Of a stretch of DNA of 14,165 nucleotides, positions 1 through 14,165 are shown piece after piece; position 1 is the first letter of the stretch; each line of letters begins with the position of its first letter. The DNA is taken from positions 1 to 14,165 of IMG/VR virus record IMGVR_UViG_2551306525_000004, one strand, 5' to 3'. Position numbers and translations under genes: made by a program. This DNA comes from a virus. Taxonomy: Duplodnaviria > Heunggongvirae > Uroviricota > Caudoviricetes. Below the pieces are notes generated by a model. It did no database searches, was not told where the DNA came from, and saw nothing but the letters and a program-made list of their open reading frames with translations.

Positions 1-138
1 TTTGTGTTGCCTTTGTGCAGAAAGCATCACGACGAGCTGCATGCGGATACCGTGGCATTTGAAGAGAAGTATGGCTCCCAGCTGGAGCTGATATTTCGTT
101 TTATCGATCGTGCGCTGGCAATTGGCGTGCTGGCCTGA
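1..138 (+). CDS. 3' end of an unidentified phage gene (partial, runs off the window start)
   Basis: Open frame from position 1 to TGA at 136-138 (...EEKYGSQLELIFRFIDRALAIGVLA*), immediately upstream of Q in the nin-region position. No family recognised. Confidence 0.4.
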   Translation, partial: FVLPLCRKHHDELHADTVAFEEKYGSQLELIFRFIDRALAIGVLA

Positions 139-155
139 TTTTGTGGAGAAAGTTG

Positions 156-533
156 ATGCGTGATATTCAAATGGTTCTGGATCGTTGGGGAGCATGGGCG
201 GCGAGTGATAGTTCAGGAGTAGACTATTCTCCTATAGCTGCTGGGTTTAAAGGGCTTCTTCCCTATACAAGCAAAACACGTCAGGCATGTTCAGATAGTG
301 ATGCATTAATTATTGAAGGTTGTCTTGCTCGTCTAAGGCAAAAAAGGCCGGACGAACATTCGCTTCTTGTTGCCCATTACCTATACGGTATCTCTAAAAG
401 AAAGCTCGCCAAGGCTCGTAAAAAGGATGAGAAACTAATACGCATTGAGATACAGATGGCTGAGGGGTTTATTGATGGCTGCCTATCGATGCTGGAAATT
501 AGTCTAGAGATGGACCCCGAAATTAAAGATTGA
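156..533 (+). CDS. Q: Late-gene antiterminator Q (short QuuD-like Q family)
   Basis: ATG at 156 preceded by GGAG (145-148); frame is open from TTG 141. Product MRDIQMVLDRWGAWAA... resembles the ~125-130-aa Q antiterminators of E. coli lambdoid prophages as I recall them, and it sits upstream of the lysis module. Confidence 0.8.
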   Translation: MRDIQMVLDRWGAWAASDSSGVDYSPIAAGFKGLLPYTSKTRQACSDSDALIIEGCLARLRQKRPDEHSLLVAHYLYGISKRKLAKARKKDEKLIRIEIQMAEGFIDGCLSMLEISLEMDPEIKD

Positions 534-539
534 TTATTG

Positions 540-564
540 AAGCCCGATTACTCGGGCTTTTGTT
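540..564 (+). terminator. Intrinsic terminator-like hairpin between convergent Q and the antisense gene
   Basis: Stem aagcccg (540-546) / cgggctt (553-559), loop attact, followed by T-rich tract. The stop codon of the minus-strand gene (548-550) lies inside the hairpin. Confidence 0.5.
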
Positions 565-1567
565 CCACATCTCGAACATAGAGAATTACTGCTGACTTAA
601 TGTCACCATCGACGTGTTTTGCGTTAATGCTCAAATGTACAGGCTTTCTTTCCCACTCAGCTCGCTGCAATGCTTCTTTGTTTCCGGATTCATCAAGGAA
701 AACATCCTGAACTACGCAGGTTAGACGTTGGTCGGTATCTACGCGTCGGACCTTAACTTTGAAACTCTCTGGGTCAGTATTATTGACTTCTTCAATTCGG
801 TAAATACCATCAATCCTCATTTCTGATGAACGTCTACGAGCATTCGTAACCAACTCTTTCGCCATTTCAGAATCAATAGTAACGCCATCAATTTGAGCGT
901 TATCTGAACGCACAAAGGATTTGACCATTTGGGTTTTAGCGTCATACGACATACGGTCCATGTTATCGAGAAGTGGTTTTTCCGCAATCATTTCTGAAAT
1001 AACCCGCAGGCGTTTAGTTTCTTGCTCGCTCATGATCTGCATAGTCCGGAGATGTTCTTTCTCTCCATCCTTAGCAATTTCTGCAAGGCGAATATCTTTA
1101 CGGTTGTCCAAGAACCGTTTAAATACTGTTACTCCGCCCCAGATGACTGCTGCGCCGAGAACAGTAAACATGATCTCAGTTGCGTTCATTTTACCAACAA
1201 GTTCCTGTGTGAGTTTGGTTAAAAAGCCATCAATGTTGATTTCTACTATTGAAGAACCCTGTTCTACCGTAACTTCTATTTCTAGGGCATCAAGTTCTTC
1301 TTTGGTCAGTTTGCGGACGTCAGGGACACCGTACTTGGCAAGGGCATATGATTTGTTGATTTGAGCTTGCATTTCAACAAATCCCTTCATAACTGAAGGT
1401 GTTAGCGATCTGTTGAATTTTTCACCGGTTAATCTGATGGTAAGGTTTGGCCATCCGTTGAAACTTAAACTGTCAGGTAAACCATAACCATCAAGATAGC
1501 TTTCAAGCAAATCGAAGGCTTGCTGCTCAGATTCAATGTCTACATGAATCTCATCAAACTTATCCAA
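548..1567 (-). CDS. Hypothetical membrane-anchored protein, 339 aa, unknown function (moron; candidate exclusion/defence factor)
   Basis: Long ORF with TTG start at 1567 preceded by GAGGA at 7-nt spacing. One central hydrophobic helix (EIMFTVLGAAVIWGGVTVF) followed by a K/R-rich stretch. AT-rich by eye and antisense to all flanking phage genes. Confidence 0.75.
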   Translation of the reverse strand: MDKFDEIHVDIESEQQAFDLLESYLDGYGLPDSLSFNGWPNLTIRLTGEKFNRSLTPSVMKGFVEMQAQINKSYALAKYGVPDVRKLTKEELDALEIEVTVEQGSSIVEINIDGFLTKLTQELVGKMNATEIMFTVLGAAVIWGGVTVFKRFLDNRKDIRLAEIAKDGEKEHLRTMQIMSEQETKRLRVISEMIAEKPLLDNMDRMSYDAKTQMVKSFVRSDNAQIDGVTIDSEMAKELVTNARRRSSEMRIDGIYRIEEVNNTDPESFKVKVRRVDTDQRLTCVVQDVFLDESGNKEALQRAEWERKPVHLSINAKHVDGDIKSAVILYVRDVEQKPE

Positions 1568-1862
1568 AAATATGTCCTCATTCTAAGCCAACTGTCACCG
1601 TGAGGTTTGGCAACGCCTGCTTTATTTTTCGTTTTAAGCTGTGTGGCAAAAAAATAATGGAAAAACAGATAAAAATCACTAACGCGGTCCGCATTTTCTA
1701 GATTACTGTGTTAAGAGTGGTTACTTCGCCACACAACTTAAACCCGCCGCTGAGCGGTTTTTTTGTACCTGTAAACTTGGTGCAGCACAGTAAACACGCT
1801 GGTGGTCGTGAATACTGACTTTTTATCTTGCTGGCTTTTTAGACAAGAGTTATTGGTATGTC
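1568..1862. promoter_or_regulatory. Divergent intergenic control region between the antisense gene and the HTH-ORF/methylase unit
   Basis: About 300 bp of AT-rich non-coding DNA between divergently oriented genes. Contains a weak hairpin followed by T7 (about 1747-1766). No confident -35/-10 assignment. Confidence 0.3.
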
Positions 1863-1886
1863 ATGTTAACCAGAAGGGAAAAAGAC

Positions 1887-2090
1887 ATGCTAAAACAGCA
1901 AGATATGACAGAAACCGCCGCCGCAGTCCTTCATTTCTTACCTGCTGACAAGTGGGTAACGCCACGCATGATGACGAGAACTACCGGAGTAAGCGAAGCC
2001 CGGTGCCAGTTAATACTGACTCAGTTAGTTCTGGCGGGTCTGGCGAAGGATAACGGCGGGTACGGGAATAAATTCAGACGCTGCCAGTAA
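1887..2090 (+). CDS. Small hypothetical protein, possibly HTH/winged-helix-like
   Basis: ORF is open from ATG 1863, but ATG 1887 has a better SD (AAGGGA, 7-nt spacing). About 68 aa; the segment TPRMMTRTTGVSEARCQLILTQL looks HTH-like. Lies directly upstream of the methylase. Confidence 0.45.
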   Translation: MLKQQDMTETAAAVLHFLPADKWVTPRMMTRTTGVSEARCQLILTQLVLAGLAKDNGGYGNKFRRCQ

Positions 2091-2209
2091 TGGCGGTTTC
2101 CTGCTGTGAAAATGGGCGGCTGGTGGGTGTTGGTAGCACCTGCCAGCCATTCGCTCATGCTTACTGGTCACAAGCGAACCACGGCCCACTGCTTTAGCGC
2201 AAAAGCAGA

Positions 2210-3301
2210 GTGAGCCTACCAGAGTTACGCTTACTGATCCATGAAAATACTGTAAAAATAAACAGTGTTGATTTAATCAACGCTGATTGCCTGCATTTTA
2301 TTCAGTCCCTGCCTGATAACTCCATTGATCTGATTGTTACCGATCCGCCGTACTTCAAAGTGAAGCCCAACGGCTGGGACAATCAGTGGAAAGGGGACGA
2401 AGATTACCTGAAGTGGCTGGACCACTGTCTGGCCCAGTTCTGGCGGGTACTGAAACCAGCCGGAAGCCTTTACCTGTTCTGTGGGCATCGCCTGGCATCT
2501 GATATTGAGATCATGATGCGTGAACGTTTCAACGTGCTTAACCATATCATCTGGGCGAAGCCGTCCGGACGTTGGAATGGGTGTAATAAAGAAAGTCTGC
2601 GCGCATATTTTCCTGCCACAGAGCGCGTTCTGTTTGCTGAACATTACCAGGGGCCATATCGCGGCAAAAGTGACGGCTATGCGGCAAAAGAAAGGGAACT
2701 CAAACAGCACATAATGGCACCGCTGATATCGTATTTCAGGGATGCTCGTGCCGAACTGGGTATAACGGCAAAACAAATTGCCGAAGCCACAGGTAAGAAA
2801 AATATGGTTTCCCACTGGTTTGGTGCCAGTCAGTGGCAGTTGCCGAATGAGGCTGACTACCGGAAGTTACAGGCACTGTTTTCCCGTATAGCGGCAGAGA
2901 AGTTTCAGGAACAACAACTGGAACAACCACACCACCAGTTGGTGGCATCTTATGATTCACTGAATCGCAAATATTCTGAATTGCTGGATGAGTTTAAATC
3001 TCTCCGGCGCTATTTCTCCGTATCAGTCTCCGTGCCTTATACCGATGTCTGGATGCATAAACCCGTTCAGTTCTACCCGGGTAAACATCCGTGTGAGAAA
3101 CCGGCGGATATGCTCAGGCAAATAATCAATGCCAGTAGTCGACCCGGCGATCTGGTTGCTGATTTCTTTATGGGATCCGGTTCCACAATAAAAGCAGCAA
3201 TGGCGCTGGGGCGTCGGGCGTTAGGTGTTGAGCTTGAGACAGAGCGGTTTAATCAGACCATCCAGGAAATCAGTATGTTATCAGCAAATACAATTTTGTG
3301 A
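2210..3301 (+). CDS. Site-specific DNA adenine methyltransferase, beta-class (CcrM/HinfI/YhdJ-like)
   Basis: Motif IV DPPY near the N-terminus (IVTDPPYF) and motif I FxGxG near the C-terminus (DFFMGSGST), preceded by HPCEKP, typical of beta-class N6A methyltransferases. GTG start at 2210. A central insert contains an HTH-like stretch (ELGITAKQIAEATG). Confidence 0.85.
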   Translation: MSLPELRLLIHENTVKINSVDLINADCLHFIQSLPDNSIDLIVTDPPYFKVKPNGWDNQWKGDEDYLKWLDHCLAQFWRVLKPAGSLYLFCGHRLASDIEIMMRERFNVLNHIIWAKPSGRWNGCNKESLRAYFPATERVLFAEHYQGPYRGKSDGYAAKERELKQHIMAPLISYFRDARAELGITAKQIAEATGKKNMVSHWFGASQWQLPNEADYRKLQALFSRIAAEKFQEQQLEQPHHQLVASYDSLNRKYSELLDEFKSLRRYFSVSVSVPYTDVWMHKPVQFYPGKHPCEKPADMLRQIINASSRPGDLVADFFMGSGSTIKAAMALGRRALGVELETERFNQTIQEISMLSANTIL

Positions 3302-3310
3302 ATTAATTCA

Positions 3311-3346
3311 ATTATTGGTGGGATGTCTGTGCCGTATAATGATTAC
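3311..3346 (+). promoter_or_regulatory. Candidate sigma70 promoter (possible late promoter pR'-like)
   Basis: Perfect -10 hexamer TATAAT at 3335-3340 with a weak -35 (ttattg, 3312-3317). Downstream initial region has repeated -10-like TACAGA/TACAGT (3344-3355), which could act as a sigma-dependent pause element. Confidence 0.25.
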
Positions 3347-3544
3347 AGATACAGTGTATCCTGCAATGCAGCAGGGCTGATGTGGTGGGTTGTACATAGC
3401 CTGCAAAGGATTGGCTTCATTAATTCATCGTTGATACAAGCGAGTCACGGTTGACCACGCCAACGGCTCATCGGTAAAAATCCGACACCGTGTCTTCTTA
3501 ACTCACTTATTGTTTCCACCCATGTTTTTGGATACCTGCTGTAG

Positions 3545-3582
3545 CTGTCAGATTAGCGCGATAATCTGACAGTCTTTTTTTT
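3545..3582 (+). terminator. Strong rho-independent terminator
   Basis: 11-bp perfect stem ctgtcagatta / taatctgacag with a 6-nt loop, followed by T8 (3575-3582). Confidence 0.65.
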
Positions 3583-3870
3583 ACAACGAATCCTTCTGAT
3601 CTGCTTTTGCGGGGCTTTTTGTATCCGCTCCATGCCCGGCGTATAAGCGGAGGTTGGTCAGTTTTCTAAAAATTGAAATACCTCACAATTCAGCCAGTTA
3701 ATGGTTGTTTGTCTGGCGAAGAGTTTGTAAATAAAAAAACGCATGGTGAATCCCCCTAAGCGGCGGGGCGAATCAGCAGTCAGTTCTGGGATAATCGCGG
3801 GTTCGTATGCTGATGCCGGACTCACCGGGAGGCACCCGGCACCATGCATCATGGTCATCCCCTTGTATGA

Positions 3871-3896
3871 TACCCCTCTCCGGAGGGGTATTTTTT
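3871..3896 (+). terminator. Strong rho-independent terminator
   Basis: 8-bp GC-rich stem tacccctc / gaggggta with loop tccg, followed by T6 (3891-3896). Confidence 0.6.
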
Positions 3897-4328
3897 GGAT
3901 AAAAAAGCCCGCGCTGGGAGGCACGGGCGGCAAGGAATAAAACGTGAAGAAATTTTCACAGGCGCATAATAATCCGATGTTGCCAGATTTTGCAACTGCA
4001 TCATCTGGTTATTATGTGAGCTGGAAAATCAGATTCTGTATGGACTGAAGCCATGCTGTTATTTAGGGCCAAAGAGCTGGCTTTTTCCCGCCTTCTCTCC
4101 AGTAACGATTAATGAGAAAAGAATGAAATGCTTTTCCTGGGGAGGAGGGCAGTAGAAAAAAGAACCCGCCAGCAAAAATATGGGGGATGAACAGCTTTTG
4201 CTACTCAGGTTGCTGGCGGGTATGGTTCTTCATGAAATAAGAATGTTACGCGGTATTTTTAATGAAAATGATAATTATTGTCAATTGGTTGTGCGTATTT
4301 TTTCATACATGACTGGTAAAGGTGATTC

Positions 4329-4360
4329 AGGCCATCAGAGTTTTGCTGATGGCCTTTTTT
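4329..4360 (+). terminator. Rho-independent terminator immediately upstream of the holin (tR'-like)
   Basis: 10-bp stem aggccatcag / ctgatggcct with a 7-nt loop, followed by T6. Ends 34 nt before the holin ATG. Confidence 0.6.
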
Positions 4361-4393
4361 CTTTCCGGTAGCACAGGTCTGTTGGGGCGGGAT

Positions 4394-4609
4394 ATGTATC
4401 AGATGGAAAAAATATCAACAGGCATTGCCTACGGCACCTCCGCAGGCAGTGCTGGCTACTGGTTTTTACAATGGCTTGATCAGGTTAGTCCGTCTCAGTG
4501 GGCTGCGATTGGTGTACTGGGAAGTCTGGTTCTGGGCTTTCTGACTTATCTGACGAATCTGTACTTCAAAATCAGAGAAGACAGAAGAAAGGCTGCGAGA
4601 GGAGAGTAA
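4394..4609 (+). CDS. S: Class II holin (phage 21 S-like pinholin) with dual-start motif
   Basis: 71 aa beginning [31 protein letters not shown]..., recalled as matching S21 (SAR-type TMD1 plus TMD2). Met1/Met4 dual start is typical of holin/antiholin pairs. The upstream in-frame extension to 4322 was not used because it would span the terminator. Confidence 0.85.
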
Positions 4610-4613
4610 TATA

Positions 4614-4958
4614 ATGGTCCAAAACTATGAAATGATTGTGAAAGGGATCCGCAATTTTGAGAATAAAGTTACGGTAACTTTAGCATTACAGGACAAAGAA
4701 CGCTTTGACGGTGAAATTTTTGACCTGGACATCTCGCTGGACCGTGTTGAAGGTGCCGCGCTGGAGTTTTATGAGGCAGCAGCCAGAAGGAGCATCAGAC
4801 AGGTCTTCCTGGATGTTGCTGCCGGGTTATGTGGAGGGGATGAGCAGTCGCCGGAAAAGCGCCCCATAATTTTAGAGGCGCAGAGTGTGTGGATAACCTA
4901 CAAAGGAAAACTGCCGGGAAGAATTACTGGTTCACTGAAGACTCCGCCGAAATGGTAA
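4614..4958 (+). CDS. Hypothetical protein inserted between holin and endolysin (DUF1327/YdfR-like by position)
   Basis: ATG 4614 with SD GGAGAG at 7-nt spacing, 114 aa. It occupies the holin-endolysin slot that ydfR occupies in the Qin prophage as I recall; the family assignment is not verified. Confidence 0.55.
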   Translation: MVQNYEMIVKGIRNFENKVTVTLALQDKERFDGEIFDLDISLDRVEGAALEFYEAAARRSIRQVFLDVAAGLCGGDEQSPEKRPIILEAQSVWITYKGKLPGRITGSLKTPPKW

Positions 4959-5196
4959 TTTCACCAGCATATTTTTCCTCCAGTAATACCGCCAGCCACT
5001 TGAAAGAATTTTGTTGTTGCTGGGACCATTTGGGATTGATTGATTCAAGCTGGAGCGATGCCAGTGTTGGTTGCATTTGTTCCTTGGGAATTGAGAATGC
5101 CAGATATGAAAATGCGACAGTAAGGGCATTTACATCATCCCGAAGCCTGGAAATGCAGTCGAGCAACTCCTGTAGAGAAATGGTGCTATTGTCCAT
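4924..5196 (-). CDS. Hypothetical small protein (~90 aa), antisense within the lysis cassette
   Basis: ATG at 5196 (minus) preceded by AGAGAGGA at about 6-nt spacing; the frame extends to TTG 5202. Product looks helical and non-repetitive. The 3' end overlaps the convergent 4614-4958 gene by about 35 nt. AT-rich. Confidence 0.45.
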   Translation of the reverse strand: MDNSTISLQELLDCISRLRDDVNALTVAFSYLAFSIPKEQMQPTLASLQLESINPKWSQQQQNSFKWLAVLLEEKYAGEITISAESSVNQ

Positions 5197-5301
5197 AAAC
5201 AATCCTCTCTATTGTATTTAACTATTCCTTGCCTGATTCAACAGGCCGGGACAGATAAACATATCCAGGGTTCAGAAACCGATAAATCCTGATAAATATC
5301 C

Positions 5302-5835
5302 ATGAACGCAAAAATCAGATACGGCCTGTCGGCTGCCGTTCTGGCACTGATTGCCGTCGGTGCGCCTGCGCCTGATATTCTCGACCAGTTTCTGGATGAA
5401 AAAGAAGGTAACCACACAACGGCATACCGCGATGGTTCCGGCATCTGGACCATCTGTCGGGGTGCCACGGTGGTGGATGGAAAACCCGTTGTTCCCGGTA
5501 TGAAACTGTCGAAGGAAAAATGCGACCAGGTTAACGCCATTGAACGGGATAAGGCGCTGGCATGGGTGGAGCGCAATATTAAAGTGCCACTGACCGAACC
5601 ACAGAAAGCGGGTATCGCGTCATTTTGTCCCTATAACATTGGCCCCGGTAAGTGTTTCCCGTCGACGTTTTATAAGCGGCTGAATGCCGGTGATCGTAAA
5701 GGTGCATGCGAGGCGATTCGCTGGTGGATAAAAGATGGTGGGCGCGATTGCCGCATACGTTCAAATAACTGCTATGGACAGGTTATTCGTCGTGACCAGG
5801 AAAGCGCATTAGCCTGTTGGGGGATAGATCAGTGA
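5302..5835 (+). CDS. R: SAR endolysin (phage lysozyme, T4L/R21-like)
   Basis: N-terminal Ala/Gly-rich SAR segment ([16 protein letters not shown]). Catalytic triad spacing E-x8-D-x5-T in [16 protein letters not shown]. 177 aa, followed by Rz. Confidence 0.85.
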
Positions 5836-6293
5836 GCAGAGTCGCCGCGATTATTTATGCTCTGGTTATCTGCATCATCGTCTGCCTGTCATGGGCTGTT
5901 AATCATTACCGTGATAACGCAATCGCCTACAAAGCCCTGCGCGACAAAAATGCCAGAGAACTGAAGCTGGCGAACGCGGCAATTACTGACATGCAGATGC
6001 GTCAGCGTGATGTTGCTGCGCTCGATGCAAAATACACGAAGGAGTTAGCTGATGCGAAAGCTGAAAATGATGCTCTGCGTGATGATGTTGCCGCTGGTCG
6101 TCGTCGGTTGCACATCAAAGCAGTCTGTCAGTCAGTGCGTGAAGCCACCACCGCCTCCGGCGTGGATAATGCAGCCTCCCCCCGACTGGCAGACACCGCT
6201 GAACGGGATTATTTCACCCTCAGAGAGAGGCTGATCACTATGCAAAAACAACTGGAAGGAACCCAGAAGTATATTAATGAGCAGTGCAGATAG
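5832..6293 (+). CDS. Rz: Spanin inner-membrane subunit Rz
   Basis: GTG 5832 overlaps the endolysin stop (GTGA). Product ...[30 protein letters not shown]... matches lambda Rz closely as I recall it. Confidence 0.85.
6052..6234 (+). CDS. Rz1: Spanin outer-membrane lipoprotein subunit Rz1 (embedded in Rz, +1 frame)
   Basis: 60 aa with lipobox LVVVGC and a proline-rich mature part ([15 protein letters not shown]), wholly inside Rz in another frame. Confidence 0.8.
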
Positions 6294-6324
6294 AGTTGCT
6301 CATATCGATGGGCAACTCATGCAA

Positions 6325-6618
6325 TTATTTTGAGCAATACACCCGCGCTTCCAGCGGAGTATAAATGCCAAAAGTGATGAAACCGAGCAATCCATTTACG
6401 AATGTTTGCTGGGTTTCTGTTTTAACCACATTTTCTGCACCACCACAAATTTTTGCTGCATCGACAGTTTTCTTCTGCCCAATTCCCGAAACGAAGAAAT
6501 GATGGGTGATGGTTTCCTTTGGTGTTACTGCTGTCGGTTTGTTTCCAACAGTAAACGTCTGTTGAGCACATCCTGTAATAAGCATTGCCAGAGCGGCAGA
6601 AAACAACATTTTTTTCAT
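6325..6618 (-). CDS. bor: Bor lipoprotein (serum-resistance/envelope lipoprotein)
   Basis: ATG at 6618 (minus) with AGGA SD. Product MKKMLFSAALAMLITGCAQQTFTV... with lipobox, close to lambda Bor as I recall it. Convergent with Rz/Rz1. Confidence 0.85.
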   Translation of the reverse strand: MKKMLFSAALAMLITGCAQQTFTVGNKPTAVTPKETITHHFFVSGIGQKKTVDAAKICGGAENVVKTETQQTFVNGLLGFITFGIYTPLEARVYCSK

Positions 6619-6816
6619 CTTATTATCCTGCATTGTTAAAAACGGCAGAATCCTATGTGACAACAATTAAACGATAGTTAAATGGATTGATGAAAATTAA
6701 AACTACACAGGTGAGCTCAGACGATTGGAGGGAGTTGGGGACACTCAGAATCCTGTAGAATGAAATAAACCGGTCTATCCGTCCATTACCCTTTTAGCTG
6801 CGCTGTATCGTCGCCG

Positions 6817-6881
6817 TATTCCCGCATTAACCATGACCGTAGCCCGACGGGGAATTCCTTCTGCGTGAGTGTGCGGGAATA
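6817..6881. repeat. 10-bp perfect inverted repeat flanking a 45-nt spacer in the bor-upstream non-coding region
   Basis: tattcccgca (6817-6826) and tgcgggaata (6872-6881) are exact reverse complements. Confidence 0.5.
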
Positions 6882-7098
6882 ATTAAAAACGATGCACACC
6901 GGGTTTTTACCGCGTTAATGATTCGCGGATTTATCCCGGTGCGATGGTGGAAGAAACCGGAAGCTGTATTACAGAAAGTGCTACTACTGTATCCCGATGC
7001 GATGTATGTAATGTGAGTCAGATAATGGCACAGGATGTGGTGATGTGGCAGTCTGGAACACAGGATATATTGTCAGAATAAGACCCGTAGGAATAAAA

Positions 7099-7425
7099 AT
7101 GAAAAGACGCCTTTTACTACTTTTTCTGTTATCTGTCCTAGCAGTGGGATGCTCGCAGCAAAAAGCTGATGAGCCCCGGCAATTAGTGACGGTGTATCCA
7201 CGATATCCGGAATATGCTGCAGCAAATTATATCAAGGGGCTGGTTGAGGTTAAGTTCGATATTGGTGCTGATGGGACTGTGACACGGATCGTTTTTCTCC
7301 GCTCAGAGCCTCATAATTTGTTTCGTGATGAAGTGGTGAAGGCCATGGCGAAATGGCGATTTGAAAAGAATCGTCCCTGTCAGGGAGTGAAGAGACAATT
7401 TATCTTTACGCCGTCACGTCCCTGA
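7099..7425 (+). CDS. Lipoprotein with a TonB C-terminal-like domain (moron)
   Basis: ATG 7099 with AGGA SD. Signal peptide plus lipobox (MKRRLLLLFLLSVLAVGCSQQ). Mature part YPRYPEYAAANYIKGLVEVKFDIGADGTVTRIVFLRSEPHNLFRDEVVKAMAKWRFE aligns well with the TonB C-terminal domain as I recall it (YPARAQALRIEGQVKVKFDV...FEREVKNAMRRWRYE). Confidence 0.7.
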   Translation: MKRRLLLLFLLSVLAVGCSQQKADEPRQLVTVYPRYPEYAAANYIKGLVEVKFDIGADGTVTRIVFLRSEPHNLFRDEVVKAMAKWRFEKNRPCQGVKRQFIFTPSRP

Positions 7426-7517
7426 TGCTTCCAGGTAGAGAGGGGCTGGAAGCAGGAGAAAAATGAAAGAGCCAGCGGTTATATTTTTGTCATGGCTGAC
7501 GAGGAATGATGGAAGAA

Positions 7518-7540
7518 GGCGTTGTATGCCACACAACGCC
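7518..7540 (-). terminator. Hairpin 8 nt downstream of the 7548-7727 gene (possible bidirectional terminator)
   Basis: Stem ggcgttgt / acaacgcc with a 7-nt loop. T-rich flanks on both strands but no clean U-tract. Confidence 0.35.
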
Positions 7541-7547
7541 TCACTGT

Positions 7548-7727
7548 TCATTTCTTCTTTTTCTCTAGTGGAACCCGATGAATAAGAGTTGCACTGGTTT
7601 CCGATGAGATGGCGATATACTCGGGCAAAGTATGCTGGCAGTTTTCCAACTGGTCAAAAATACCTGCTCTCGTCTGTTGCAATGCCTGCAGCATGCGGCG
7701 GCAATGCGCCTTGCTTTTGCTAACCAT
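7548..7727 (-). CDS. Hypothetical small protein (59 aa)
   Basis: ATG at 7727 (minus) preceded by a strong SD AGGAAGGA at 4-nt spacing. The longer 117-aa frame overlaps the upstream gene, so the shorter start is preferred. Confidence 0.45.
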   Translation of the reverse strand: MVSKSKAHCRRMLQALQQTRAGIFDQLENCQHTLPEYIAISSETSATLIHRVPLEKKKK

Positions 7728-7788
7728 CTTTCCTTCCTCTATCAGTCGCTGCGTGAACTCATCATGGAATACCAGGTAAATGCGGATG

Positions 7789-8040
7789 TTATCGGTTTTG
7801 GCTACGCAGCATAGTACAAAACGGACAGGTGCATCCCGGGACGGGGGAGGCGTCACATGTCCCTGTGATGGTTGTTCCGGGTAATGCACTGTGTGGGGCA
7901 TAAAAATGTCCGATAATTTTACTTTCTACCGCAGTTAGTTGATTCGTTGGTCCTGGTAGCACATTGGGCGAGGATTTAAATGCCAGGCAACTGAAGGATG
8001 ATGTTGCAAGGGAGATAGCGAGAATATTTCTGATTTTCAT
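7789..8040 (-). CDS. Hypothetical small secreted Cys-containing protein (83 aa)
   Basis: ATG at 8040 (minus) with AGAGG SD. N-terminal signal-peptide-like segment MKIRNILAISLATSSFSCLA. Mature part carries 5 Cys (CDASPVPGCTCPFC). Confidence 0.45.
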   Translation of the reverse strand: MKIRNILAISLATSSFSCLAFKSSPNVLPGPTNQLTAVESKIIGHFYAPHSALPGTTITGTCDASPVPGCTCPFCTMLRSQNR

Positions 8041-8149
8041 TTGATGATGCCTCTGTGTGAAATGACGGTAAACGACGCACTTGTGCCGGCACATAATAGC
8101 AAGCACCATAATAGATCAGATTCGATTCTTGCTGTAAGTGATAATTATT

Positions 8150-8378
8150 CTCGTTTTTCGGGTCCTTTCCGGCGATCCAACAGGCTACGGGGCGGCGACC
8201 TCGCGGGTTTTCGCTATTTATGAAAATTTTCCGGTTTAAGGCGTTTCCGTTCTTCTTCGTCATAACTTAATGTTTTTATTTAAAATACCCTCTGAAAAGA
8301 AAGGAAACGACAGGTGCTGAAAGCGAGCTTTTTGGCCTCTGTCGTTTCCTTTCTCTGTTTTTGTCCGTGGAATGAACA
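8150..8378. other. cos: Lambda-type cos site (cosQ-cosN-cosB); cosN 12-nt cohesive end GGGCGGCGACCT at 8190-8201
   Basis: Sequence ...caggctacg|gggcggcgacct|cgcgggttttcgctatttatgaaaattttccgg... matches the lambda genome ends/cos as I recall them, and Nu1 starts 189 nt downstream. Confidence 0.85.
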
Positions 8379-8898
8379 ATGGAAGTCAACAAAAAGCAGC
8401 TGGCTGACATTTTCGGTGCGAGTATCCGTACCATTCAGAACTGGCAGGAACAGGGAATGCCCGTTCTGCGAGGCGGTGGCAAGGGTAATGAGGTGCTTTA
8501 TGACTCTGCCGCCGTCATAAAATGGTATGCCGAAAGGGATGCTGAAATTGAGAACGAAAAGCTGCGCCGGGAAGTTGAAGAACTGCGGCAGGCCAGCGAG
8601 ACAGATCTCCAGCCAGGGACTATTGAGTACGAACGCCATCGACTTACGCGTGCGCAGGCCGACGCACAGGAGCTGAAAAATGCCAGAGACTCCGCTGAAG
8701 TGGTGGAAACCGCATTCTGTACTTTCGTGCTGTCGCGGATCGCAGGTGAAATTGCCAGTATTCTCGACGGGATCCCCCTGTCGGTGCAGCGGCGTTTTCC
8801 GGAACTGGAAAACCGACATGTTGATTTCCTGAAACGGGATATCATCAAAGCCATGAACAAAGCAGCCGCGCTGGATGAACTGATACCGGGGTTGCTGA

Positions 8899-8924
<26 letters not shown>
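8379..8924 (+). CDS. nu1: Terminase small subunit Nu1
   Basis: 181 aa MEVNKKQLADIFGASIRTIQNWQEQGMPVLRGGGKGNEVLYDSAAVIKWYAERD..., nearly identical to lambda gpNu1 as I recall it. Confidence 0.95.
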
Positions 8925-12605
<3,681 letters not shown>

Positions 12606-12625
<20 letters not shown>

Positions 12626-12935
12626 TCTCCCGCATATTGCCAGCATGGCTTTTAATGAGCCGCTGATGCTTGAACCCGCCTATGCGCGGGTTTTCTTTTG
12701 TGCGCTTGCAGGCCAGCTTGGGATCAGCCGCCTGACGGATGCAGTATCCGGCGACAGCCTGACTGCCGGAGAGGCACCCGCGGCGCTGGCGTTATCCGGT
12801 GATGATGACGGACCACGACAGGCCCGCAGTTATCAGGTCATGAACGGCATCGCCGTGCTGCCGGTGTCCGGTACGCTGGTCAGCCGGACGCGGGCGCTGC
12901 AGCCGTATTCGGGAATATCTTCAGTCCCATACTGA
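12606..12935 (+). pseudogene. C: Truncated gene C (head protease/scaffold); only about 103 N-terminal codons of lambda-like sequence, then out-of-context sequence to a stop
   Basis: GTG 12606, product MTAELRNLPHIASMAFNEPLMLEPAYARVFFCALAGQLGIS...RALQPYSG matches the lambda gpC N-terminus (full length about 439 aa). Homology stops near 12916 and the frame ends at 12935. Confidence 0.8.
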
Positions 12936-12936
12936 T

Positions 12937-13071
12937 ATGCCCGGCAACGATGACCTGAAGGGCATTAACGTGAAATACCGTTATGAGTTTACGGACACGC
13001 TGGGGATGGTGACGTCATTCAGCTATGCAGAAGACAAGAATCGCCAGCTGACTCATTACAGCGATAGCCGT
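12937..13071 (+). pseudogene. lom: Internal fragment of a lom-like (Ail/Lom/PagC family) outer-membrane protein gene
   Basis: Translation PGNDDLKGINVKYRYEFTDTLGMVTSFSYAEDKNRQLTHYSD matches an internal segment of lambda Lom (VPGSDDLNGINVKYRYEFTDTLGLVTSFSYAGDKNRQLTRYSD) as I recall it. No signal peptide and no C-terminus. Confidence 0.6.
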
Positions 13072-13245
13072 TCTGACGGTACTCATCCCCGCGCCAATCT
13101 GGCGGGCAATGGTTTCAATCGATGGCCAGCACACACCTTCGTCATTACTGAAATCAGCCAGGCGGGCCATAATTGCCACGCTGGATAATTTCATGCCTGA
13201 CGCTGCGCAACCATCCCATACATAGCCGGTTAATTTAGTGCTCAT
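13015..13245 (-). pseudogene. Truncated HTH (HTH_36-like) replication/regulatory gene N-terminus, e14 ymfN-like
   Basis: First ~58 codons (MSTKLTGYVWDGCAASGMKLSSVAIMARLADFSNDEGVCWPSIETIARQIGAGMSTVR) look like the HTH N-terminus of phage replication-initiation proteins. The remaining 18 codons are antisense of the lom fragment, so the gene is cut at about 13071/13072. Confidence 0.5.
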
Positions 13246-13254
13246 GACCGACCT

Positions 13255-13593
13255 CTATTTCCCTGAATTTACGACGAAACTGTTCGAGCGGACTGAAGCA
13301 CTCATGCTCATAGCCTTCGCGGAGGTAGATAACCCGTTGTGTTTCCGGTTCCCAACGAATGACTCTGACGGGCACTCCGTAGTGATCTTTGAACCAGCGG
13401 TTAACTTGTCGCAAAGGACTGTCTCCTTCTGCCGGTTGAAATCCCCCACAGCCCACTCTGCAAAGCTGTGGGTTACAATTTCCCTGTCACCTGGTACATT
13501 CACTGCATAGCAATATTCCACCTTCGCTTTTCCACCCGGTACAGGAAGCGCAATCAGTTGCGAGCGACGGTAGTGTGTTGTTAAACTGTTCAT
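13255..13593 (-). CDS. Hypothetical protein, 112 aa (e14 ymfM-like by size and position)
   Basis: ATG 13593 overlaps the stop of the upstream gene (ATGA). The size and the 189-aa / 112-aa / HTH gene order match e14 ymfL-ymfM-ymfN as I recall. The C-terminal half is low-complexity and an alternative frame overlaps it. Confidence 0.45.
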
Positions 13594-14159
13594 GCGTTAG
13601 TTTCTCCACAACCAGAAGCAATCGACGCCACGACGCCCGGAGCTGCACACTCGCGGGCGTCATTACTTTCTGAAATGCAAAAGATTTTGTAGACCAGTGC
13701 TGCATGCTCCTGCAGCTTCGAAATTGAGAGATACAGCTCGTCGTTAATTGCTGTCTTCTCATGCGGTTCCACTACACCGTCTTCGATTGCTGAACGAATC
13801 TGTTTTGAATAACTGCCGATCTGTTCAATGACTTCCAGCAGACGCTGGTTAATATCGGCGTTGTCCACATCCTCGACGTCAGGAAGCGACACAAAGACGC
13901 CATTTGCAGACTGCGCCACAGCATCAGCAATGAAGTGAGTGCCACCAGCACGCTGTAAAACCATTGCCCATCCCAGCGGGAAAATCTGATCGCCATCTGC
14001 ACGAAGGCGGTTGAATAAAGCGTTTTCTGTTACATCGAGCCAGTCAGCCGCTTCAGCGTAACCACCCGGCAACGCCGCGATAGTTTTTCTGACAGCTTTC
14101 ACGTACCACTCAGGCTGTTTTTCTATTTTCCAGTGATGCTTACCCACGATTAGCCTCAT
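13590..14159 (-). CDS. Phage CII-like regulatory protein (CP76-type; e14 ymfL-like), 189 aa
   Basis: Full-length [61 protein letters not shown]...; the family assignment is from memory. Its promoter lies outside the window. Confidence 0.6.
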
Positions 14160-14165
14160 CGTTGT

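Follow-up and report, generated by a model that had tools for sequence, protein, structure and literature searches.

The 14,165 nucleotides of the record IMGVR_UViG_2551306525_000004 (IMG/VR, positions 1 to 14,165; the whole stretch analyzed here, referred to as the window) represent the late region of a lambdoid Escherichia coli prophage. Positions 4394 to 6293 of this window very probably contain an intact lysis cassette, built from widely circulating Qin-, Stx-, 21-, and lambda-like modules, in which a holin gene (S), ydfR, an antisense gene of 90 codons (orf90), a lysozyme gene (R), and the spanin genes Rz and Rz1 are followed by bor. The gene content and gene positions described in an initial annotation of the window are confirmed, because a listing of open reading frames (ORFs) and family scans recover every named gene in its place. 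As a whole, the cassette is of an ordinary and widely distributed kind. RefSeq annotation covers all of its genes except the embedded Rz1 (as class II holin, YdfR family protein, hypothetical protein, lysozyme, RzpD, and Iss), and its modular mosaicism is real but typical of what is already known. The significance of the finding is small: it adds one more example of lambdoid phages exchanging lysis genes as modules, a well-known process, in a prophage that is frequent in E. coli, including avian-pathogenic strains.

Population counts were made in 5,426 complete E. coli genomes, and phage proteins were searched in 50,697 phage records. The region 4300-6700 is present at 100% identity in at least 20 complete E. 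coli genomes, including that of the avian-pathogenic E. coli (APEC) strain O78, and at 99% identity or more in 85 records; 491 of the 5,426 genomes contain at least 80% of this stretch in one place. Colinearity of the whole cassette with a single known phage, which the initial annotation had regarded as incompatible with its reading of a recombined cassette, thus exists in spirit: the cassette is colinear, at 100% identity, with annotated prophages in these genomes (20 or more), but no isolated phage record holds all of it at high identity.

Holin, lysozyme, and spanins

The holin gene (4394-4609, plus strand) encodes a class II holin of 71 amino acids that falls into the S21 pinholin family (PF04971, 'Bacteriophage P21 holin S'; 121.8 bits with a cut-off of 26). 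The initial annotation had recognized in this protein the S21 pinholin sequence and its Met-x-x-Met dual start, and both observations hold. In a comparison with S21-71 of phage 21, whose sequence was taken from the phage genome record, 68 of the 71 residues are identical and the differences are found at positions 2, 3, and 5 only. Residues 6-71, which include both transmembrane segments, are the same as in S21, the N-terminus reads MYQME versus MKSMD, and the dual-start motif Met1-Tyr-Gln-Met4 is encoded by ATG TAT CAG ATG at 4394-4405. Amino acid identity is lower to EssD (82%) and EssQ (79%). At the nucleotide level the holin genes of the window and phage 21 are 84-85% identical, with a synonymous divergence (dS) of 1.19, a nonsynonymous divergence (dN) of 0.037, and a dN/dS ratio of 0.03; all six nonsynonymous changes are confined to codons 2, 3, and 5. 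With this high dS and a DNA identity of just 84-85%, the holin allele belongs to an old lineage on which purifying selection acts very strongly, and it is not a recent import.

The long start form is set apart by its first three residues. S21-71 acts as an antiholin through an extra positive charge (reviewed in PMC9636201). In the window, the extension of the long form is Met-Tyr-Gln, compared with Met-Lys-Ser in S21, and both Lys2 and the charge are absent. The start regions of the two genes (ATGTATCAGATG versus ATGAAATCAATG) have the appearance of a compensated pair of 1-nucleotide indels. Of the 5,426 E. coli genomes, 119 carry the MYQ start allele (at least 99% identity over 65 nucleotides). 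Phage records lack it; their best nucleotide match reaches 93%, and no phage holin exceeds 95.8% identity. A full-text literature search with the S21 peptide gave no match. This S21 allele with a charge-less long start is a modestly new detail, and as a natural variant it would offer a handy test case for the charge model of antiholin function.

The lysozyme gene R (5302-5835, plus strand) codes for a GH24 enzyme of 177 amino acids (PF00959, 88.1 bits) and is, like S and orf90, under purifying selection. As had been proposed, it carries the Glu/Asp/Thr triad and is not a lambda-type transglycosylase: E35, D44, and T50, separated by eight and five residues, align with the same residues of R21 (PDB 3HDE), and identity to lambda R is 19%. 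The further assignment to a phage-21-type endolysin has to be revised, however. The protein is 94% identical to RrrQ of K-12 Qin (92.1% at the nucleotide level between 5292-5835 and rrrQ) but shares just 38% of its residues with the R21-type RrrD, and in nucleotide alignments the gene matches neither R of phage 21 nor rrrD of DLP12. By these comparisons the lysozyme shares the R21 class, as defined by the GH24 family, the triad, and an N-terminal hydrophobic segment, but not the R21 lineage. Its N-terminus contains two basic residues, K4 and R6, followed by hydrophobic residues 7-24, which probably form a signal-anchor-release (SAR) or signal-anchor domain. The hydropathy of this region over 18 amino acids is 1.76, compared with 2.27 in R21 and -0.06 in lambda R.

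The i-spanin gene Rz (5832-6293, plus strand; 153 amino acids; PF03245, 180.8 bits) starts with GTG and overlaps the stop codon of R. Rz1 (6052-6234, plus strand; PF06085, 72.2 bits), an o-spanin lipoprotein of 60 amino acids with the lipobox VVGC at residues 17-20 and the lipobox cysteine Cys20, is encoded in the +1 frame and lies wholly inside Rz, so that the pair has the layout of a two-component embedded spanin. Further downstream, bor/iss (6325-6618, minus strand; PF06291, 106.8 bits) is antisense to the late operon; it encodes an outer-membrane lipoprotein for serum resistance, which RefSeq lists as 'increased serum survival lipoprotein Iss', and is an independently expressed lysogenic-conversion gene. 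The initial annotation had called Rz, Rz1, and bor nearly identical to lambda, and this is correct at 148 of 153 (96.7%), 59 of 60 (98.3%), and 88 of 97 amino acids, respectively. The corresponding values for phage 21 are 144 of 153, 60 of 60, and 95 of 97, and the Rz proteins of phage 21 and lambda agree with each other at 149 of 153 positions. At the nucleotide level, Rz of the window is 97.8% identical to lambda and 97.0% to phage 21.

Taken together, the most likely mode of action of the cassette is the pinholin pathway, because the transmembrane segments of the holin equal those of S21, the lysozyme possesses basic residues followed by a hydrophobic stretch, and the spanin pair is intact. 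Its predicted logic of a pinholin, a membrane-tethered lysozyme, and spanins would be that of phage 21, for which the pinholin/SAR paradigm with pinholes of about 2 nm has been reviewed (PMC9636201). Lambda differs in both respects: its S is a dissimilar class I holin forming large holes, and its R is a cytoplasmic transglycosylase that lacks an N-terminal hydrophobic segment. Upon Q-dependent late transcription, the S21-type pinholin would accumulate in the inner membrane and, triggering at a set time, open pores of about 2 nm that collapse the membrane potential; the near-identity to S21 leads us to infer that these pores are small (~2 nm) and heptameric, and that they depolarize the membrane without letting endolysin through. 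By then, the RrrQ-type lysozyme would have been exported already, with its N-terminal hydrophobic domain keeping it in the membrane in an inactive state. Depolarization would free the enzyme, which could then cut the peptidoglycan, and the Rz/Rz1 spanin pair would finally breach the outer membrane.

Several observations sit less comfortably with this pathway. The long holin form lacks the antiholin positive charge, and timing control may therefore differ from that in phage 21. R has no obvious Shine-Dalgarno sequence. Gly, Ala, Ser, and Thr account for 8 of 18 residues in the N-terminal segment of the lysozyme, fewer than the 11 of 18 in the SAR domain of R21, and the literature searched contained neither a description of SAR behavior in RrrQ-type lysozymes nor a published test of such enzymes. 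The segment fits a SAR domain but would also be compatible with a stable anchor. The lysozyme might instead possess an ordinary signal peptide that is cleaved off, or an anchor that is permanent, and the coupling of holin and endolysin would then be unlike that in phage 21. We regard this alternative as unlikely. The catalytic residues are numbered as in R21, and the sole small-residue motif in the segment, V19-G20-A21, directly precedes Pro22. A proline in the position after such a motif disfavors cleavage by signal peptidase I. Moreover, the partner holin equals S21 over residues 6-71, and because pinholes of about 2 nm (PMC9636201) are too small for a folded enzyme, export of the lysozyme should be independent of the holin.

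Mosaic structure and relatives of the cassette

Alignment of the window to lambda, DLP12 and Qin of strain K-12, and the complete genome of phage 21 (OL657228), the comparison suggested in the initial annotation, supports a mosaic structure of the cassette relative to all four and places the breakpoints. Positions 4390-4819 correspond to essQ and the first 69 codons of ydfR in Qin (82.6% nucleotide identity). Lambda has no nucleotide match upstream of 5833; from there on, 5833-6672 are 93.6% identical to lambda, and 5830-8189 match the right end of phage 21, through the cos end, at 98.3%, including a gene for a TonB-C-like protein. The switch from Qin-like to 21/lambda-like sequence occurs exactly at the overlapping stop and start codons of R and Rz (CAGTGAGCAGAG, 5832-5836), and the identical junction is present in the isolated phages 640R1 and Perceval.

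Each of the reference elements resembles a different part of the cassette. Phage 21 has the dual-start holin and the block from Rz onward, but its endolysin belongs to another lineage, and ydfR and orf90 are absent there, S and R abutting each other. K-12 Qin shows the same order of holin, ydfR, and lysozyme (essQ-ydfR-rrrQ), and the first 69 codons of its ydfR are 88% identical to those of the window. However, Qin differs in the essQ holin allele, a YdfR of 103 amino acids, the absence of orf90 and bor, and a DUF2514-type spanin (rzpQ/rzoQ) unrelated to that of the window. Qin of strain MS20659 encodes both a YdfR of 114 amino acids and orf90 and is colinear over 1,442 nucleotides (89.6%). 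This S-ydfR-orf90-R module of 1,442 nucleotides recurs without any indel, at 86-90% identity, in MS20659 Qin, in prophages of W224N and EC931, and in phage vB_EcoS-783R2, and these copies are followed by three different kinds of spanin region.

Isolated phages contain related arrangements, and a YdfR-family gene is located between S and R also in mEp460, Stx2 phage 86, and many others. In the group of vB_EcoS-640R1/733R4 and Perceval, 640R1 and Perceval share S-ydfR-R-Rz-bor with the window at 86-97% nucleotide identity, and 640R1 lacks orf90. Chlobot carries S-ydfR-orf90-R and the start of Rz at 93.5%, and vB_EcoS-783R2 has S-ydfR-orf90-R at 86% with additional genes between its R and Rz. The MYQME holin start is found in none of 640R1, Perceval, Chlobot, and 783R2.

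The initial annotation had interpreted the cassette as a phage-21-type holin and endolysin joined to lambda-type Rz/Rz1 by recombination, and interrupted by about 700 bp carrying two convergent genes, which might have added control over lysis timing. The two genes are real, the distance between holin and lysozyme genes is 692 bp, and the genes converge with an overlap of 35 nucleotides at their 3' ends. Mosaicism relative to the references, a sharp R|Rz switch, and the 97.8% nucleotide identity of Rz to lambda are also in line with this scenario of a recent joining event. A recombinant structure as such is borne out by the breakpoints; the proposed union of phage 21 and lambda is not, and the alignments have disproved it in large part. 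Since phage 21 itself carries the lambda-like block (98.3% over 5830-8189), the similarity of Rz, Rz1, and bor to lambda provides no evidence for a 21-lambda join. R is not R21 (38% amino acid identity), the dS of 1.19 marks S as an old allele lineage, and the R|Rz junction is common to isolated phages. Furthermore, the 'interruption' is hardly an unusual event, as essQ-ydfR-rrrQ is the layout of K-12 Qin, and unrelated prophages, among them the Qin of another strain, have a colinear S-ydfR-orf90-R module. Nothing links either of the two extra genes to lysis timing. A recent 21-lambda join with a timing insertion is therefore very improbable.

Two further relatives were noted among the database matches. 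In phiSTEC1575-Stx2k (1791-3809), an S21-type holin, ydfR, and orf90 precede another, unrelated pair of holin genes, and an M15 metallopeptidase takes the place of the lysozyme; two holin systems are thus present in one cassette. In APEC O78 (from 12626 onward, corresponding to the window from 8926 onward), the element stops after the small terminase gene and is followed by yfdP-yfdT, intD, and a tRNA-Arg gene. Because it breaks off into these genes, the APEC O78 copy represents a prophage at the DLP12 site that has been truncated or rearranged. The idea that the window, too, is a defective remnant at the DLP12 site was rejected, since the window diverges at this point and runs on into the genes for the large terminase and portal.

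The genes between holin and lysozyme

The first of the two intervening genes, ydfR (4614-4958, plus strand), encodes a protein of 114 amino acids of the YdfR family/DUF1327 (PF07041, 143.9 bits; full-length match to phrog_406), listed in RefSeq as WP_000250557.1, 'YdfR family protein'. It has the same orientation as the lysis genes, its Shine-Dalgarno sequence AGGAG sits within the 3' end of the holin gene, and it occupies the same place between holin and lysozyme as K-12 ydfR. The PF07041 family is nearly restricted to Escherichia and Shigella, and most of its members have 112-116 amino acids like the form in the window. Residues 1-69 align with YdfR of K-12, which diverges past approximately residue 70. 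In K-12, residues 1-72 of YdfR were found to interact with the N-terminal, catalytic half of RNase E in the two-hybrid and co-purification experiments of a 2026 study; YdfR preparations carried RNA, and overexpression altered few transcripts (PMC13232886). The RNase E-binding part is the portion that is conserved in the window. The structural model of YdfR combines three beta strands with one long helix, and confidence is low at its C-terminus (predicted local distance difference test score, pLDDT, of 62). A literature search retrieved no papers that join ydfR with holin and endolysin, and one incidental mention of DUF1327. The gene is best regarded as a conserved passenger of this type of cassette.

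The second gene, orf90 (4924-5196, minus strand; WP_000370549.1), matches phrog_2411 (E 3.8e-59). Its database relatives are all unnamed proteins of Escherichia, Shigella, or E. albertii, with one partial entry labeled Pseudomonas as the exception. At least 80% of the region 4860-5300 is present in 1,129 of the 5,426 E. coli genomes (~21%), and the protein was found in only three of the 50,697 phage records. The AlphaFold2 model predicts three helices (pLDDT 79). It could be argued that this minus-strand ORF arose by chance in a non-coding spacer, as it has no match in Pfam, NCBIfam, or PADLOC, all database names read 'hypothetical protein', and an ORF on the plus strand (4889-5221) is also open. 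Comparative analyses render this explanation extremely improbable. Across eight copies with nucleotide identities down to 72%, orf90 retains exactly 90 codons without any stop or indel, pairwise dN/dS ratios are 0.2-0.4, and it is the sole frame of six that is open in all eight; the rival plus-strand ORF is broken in six of them. The PHROG match also covers the full length. A chance ORF was rejected on the grounds of codon count, dN/dS, and the open frame, and the pattern of conservation argues that orf90 is a real, selected protein-coding orphan gene.

The unit that contains orf90 was delimited by comparison with phage 640R1 as a 292-nucleotide indel (4954-5245), which comprises orf90, the ribosome binding site GAGGA, and a TTGAAT-19-TACAAT pair that was recognized by eye. 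In the simplest reading, ydfR and R are separated by a 'moron' slot for small antisense genes, like bor downstream of Rz; orf90 would be a small coding gene inserted into this variable slot and could be expressed in lysogens, and ydfR would be a passenger. Some results do not favor this interpretation: a consensus scan detected neither a sigma-70 promoter nor a terminator for orf90, and Foldseek searches of the Protein Data Bank (PDB) returned no significant match for the YdfR model and no match with E < 0.001 for the orf90 model. The presence of orf90 in about one fifth of E. coli genomes and the occupation of the slot by unrelated antisense ORFs in different phages are modestly new. Both the unstudied orphan gene within the lysis operon of these genomes and the variable antisense-gene slot between ydfR and R may be regarded as small leads.

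Further observations concern the content of the slot in other elements. It is empty in 640R1 and K-12 Qin. In Perceval, it harbors an unannotated antisense ORF of 79 amino acids (3023-3262, minus strand) that matches phrog_21218 over its full length; kinship of this ORF with orf90 was considered and rejected, since a direct comparison found the two unrelated. An intact copy of orf90 (72% nucleotide identity) is located away from lysis genes in E. coli 702/18 (1448-1720), beside iha among remnants of insertion sequences (IS). This copy retains 128 nucleotides of the upstream region and the first bases of R, and looks like the relic of a lysis cassette of which only this ORF has survived. Approximately 56 nucleotides before the lysozyme start (5246-5301) are more conserved than the flanking coding sequences in all copies, including the iha-linked relic.

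Whether the two genes influence lysis deserves separate consideration. Either or both might regulate lysis or late-gene expression: antisense transcription from orf90 over ydfR and S could damp leaky holin expression in lysogens, and YdfR could modulate the decay of late mRNA by RNase E. Both genes are conserved inside the lysis operon, and the minus strand past orf90 contains no terminator-like site until 4432-4418, within S. The binding of the RNase E N-terminal domain by residues 1-72 of K-12 YdfR and its co-purification with RNA (PMC13232886) point in the same direction, and a further timing input could be useful to a holin whose long form is devoid of the canonical antiholin charge. Nevertheless, phage 21, lambda, and DLP12 lyse or are organized without either gene, and orf90 is missing from 640R1, Perceval, and K-12 Qin, in which the cassette is otherwise the same. 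The few transcripts altered by ydfR overexpression (PMC13232886) and the intact orf90 copy next to iha, away from lysis genes, also argue against such a role. The purifying selection on the orf90 protein suggests that it is the protein that matters and not antisense RNA alone. A regulatory function of ydfR or orf90 is thus decidedly unlikely, and lysis is explicable without them. The more elaborate idea that the charge-less S21 variant, YdfR, and the antisense orf90 together alter the control of lysis or late mRNA, the accessory pair acting in place of the missing charge or in addition, is a long shot. If it were true, small antisense genes that adjust lysis or benefit the lysogen would be exchanged among lambdoid phages at the ydfR-R gap, as a hot-spot dedicated to such swaps.

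Genomic context

The late region surrounding the cassette has a gene order starting with the Q antiterminator, an antisense gene for a protein of 339 amino acids, a DNA methyltransferase, and a small RNA (sRNA) of the STnc100 family. The lysis cassette and iss come next, succeeded by genes for the TonB-C-like lipoprotein, the small and large terminase, and the portal. An NCBIfam scan yielded no informative matches. In a PADLOC scan of ydfR, orf90, and the neighboring genes without known function, only the upstream methyltransferase was matched and no defense system was detected. Downstream of bor, the lipoprotein encoded at 7045-7425 (plus strand) contains a TonB C-terminal domain and the lipobox LAVGC and is shared with phage 21. 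It also matches phrog_1267, 'Rz-like spanin' (E 6e-43), a PHROG label that is probably misleading here.

Upstream, a full-length Rfam match to the sRNA STnc100 (3712-3900, plus strand; 114.5 bits, gathering threshold 47) ends in a terminator hairpin and is placed in the leader between the methyltransferase and holin genes. Prophage sRNAs of the STnc100/PasD type that adjoin holin-lysozyme operons have been described in a 2026 preprint. A second, sub-threshold match resembles SgrS (4264-4360, plus strand; 24.8 bits, gathering threshold 37, E 2.8e-4) and ends in a strong hairpin with a T-run (4329-4355) about 40 nucleotides before the holin start; this element may be the 3' module of a second sRNA or a terminator of the late operon. 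Between 3300 and 7100, 11 terminator-like hairpins were found compared with 4.1 expected, and they cluster at approximately 3540-4360. The antisense gene for the protein of 339 amino acids (548-1567, minus strand) belongs to phrog_6191, and the methyltransferase gene (2210-3301, plus strand) encodes a type II-like orphan enzyme (PADLOC MTase_II, E 5e-151). The position of these two genes, past Q and ahead of the lysis cassette, is the one taken by stx in Stx phages and by nmpC in DLP12.

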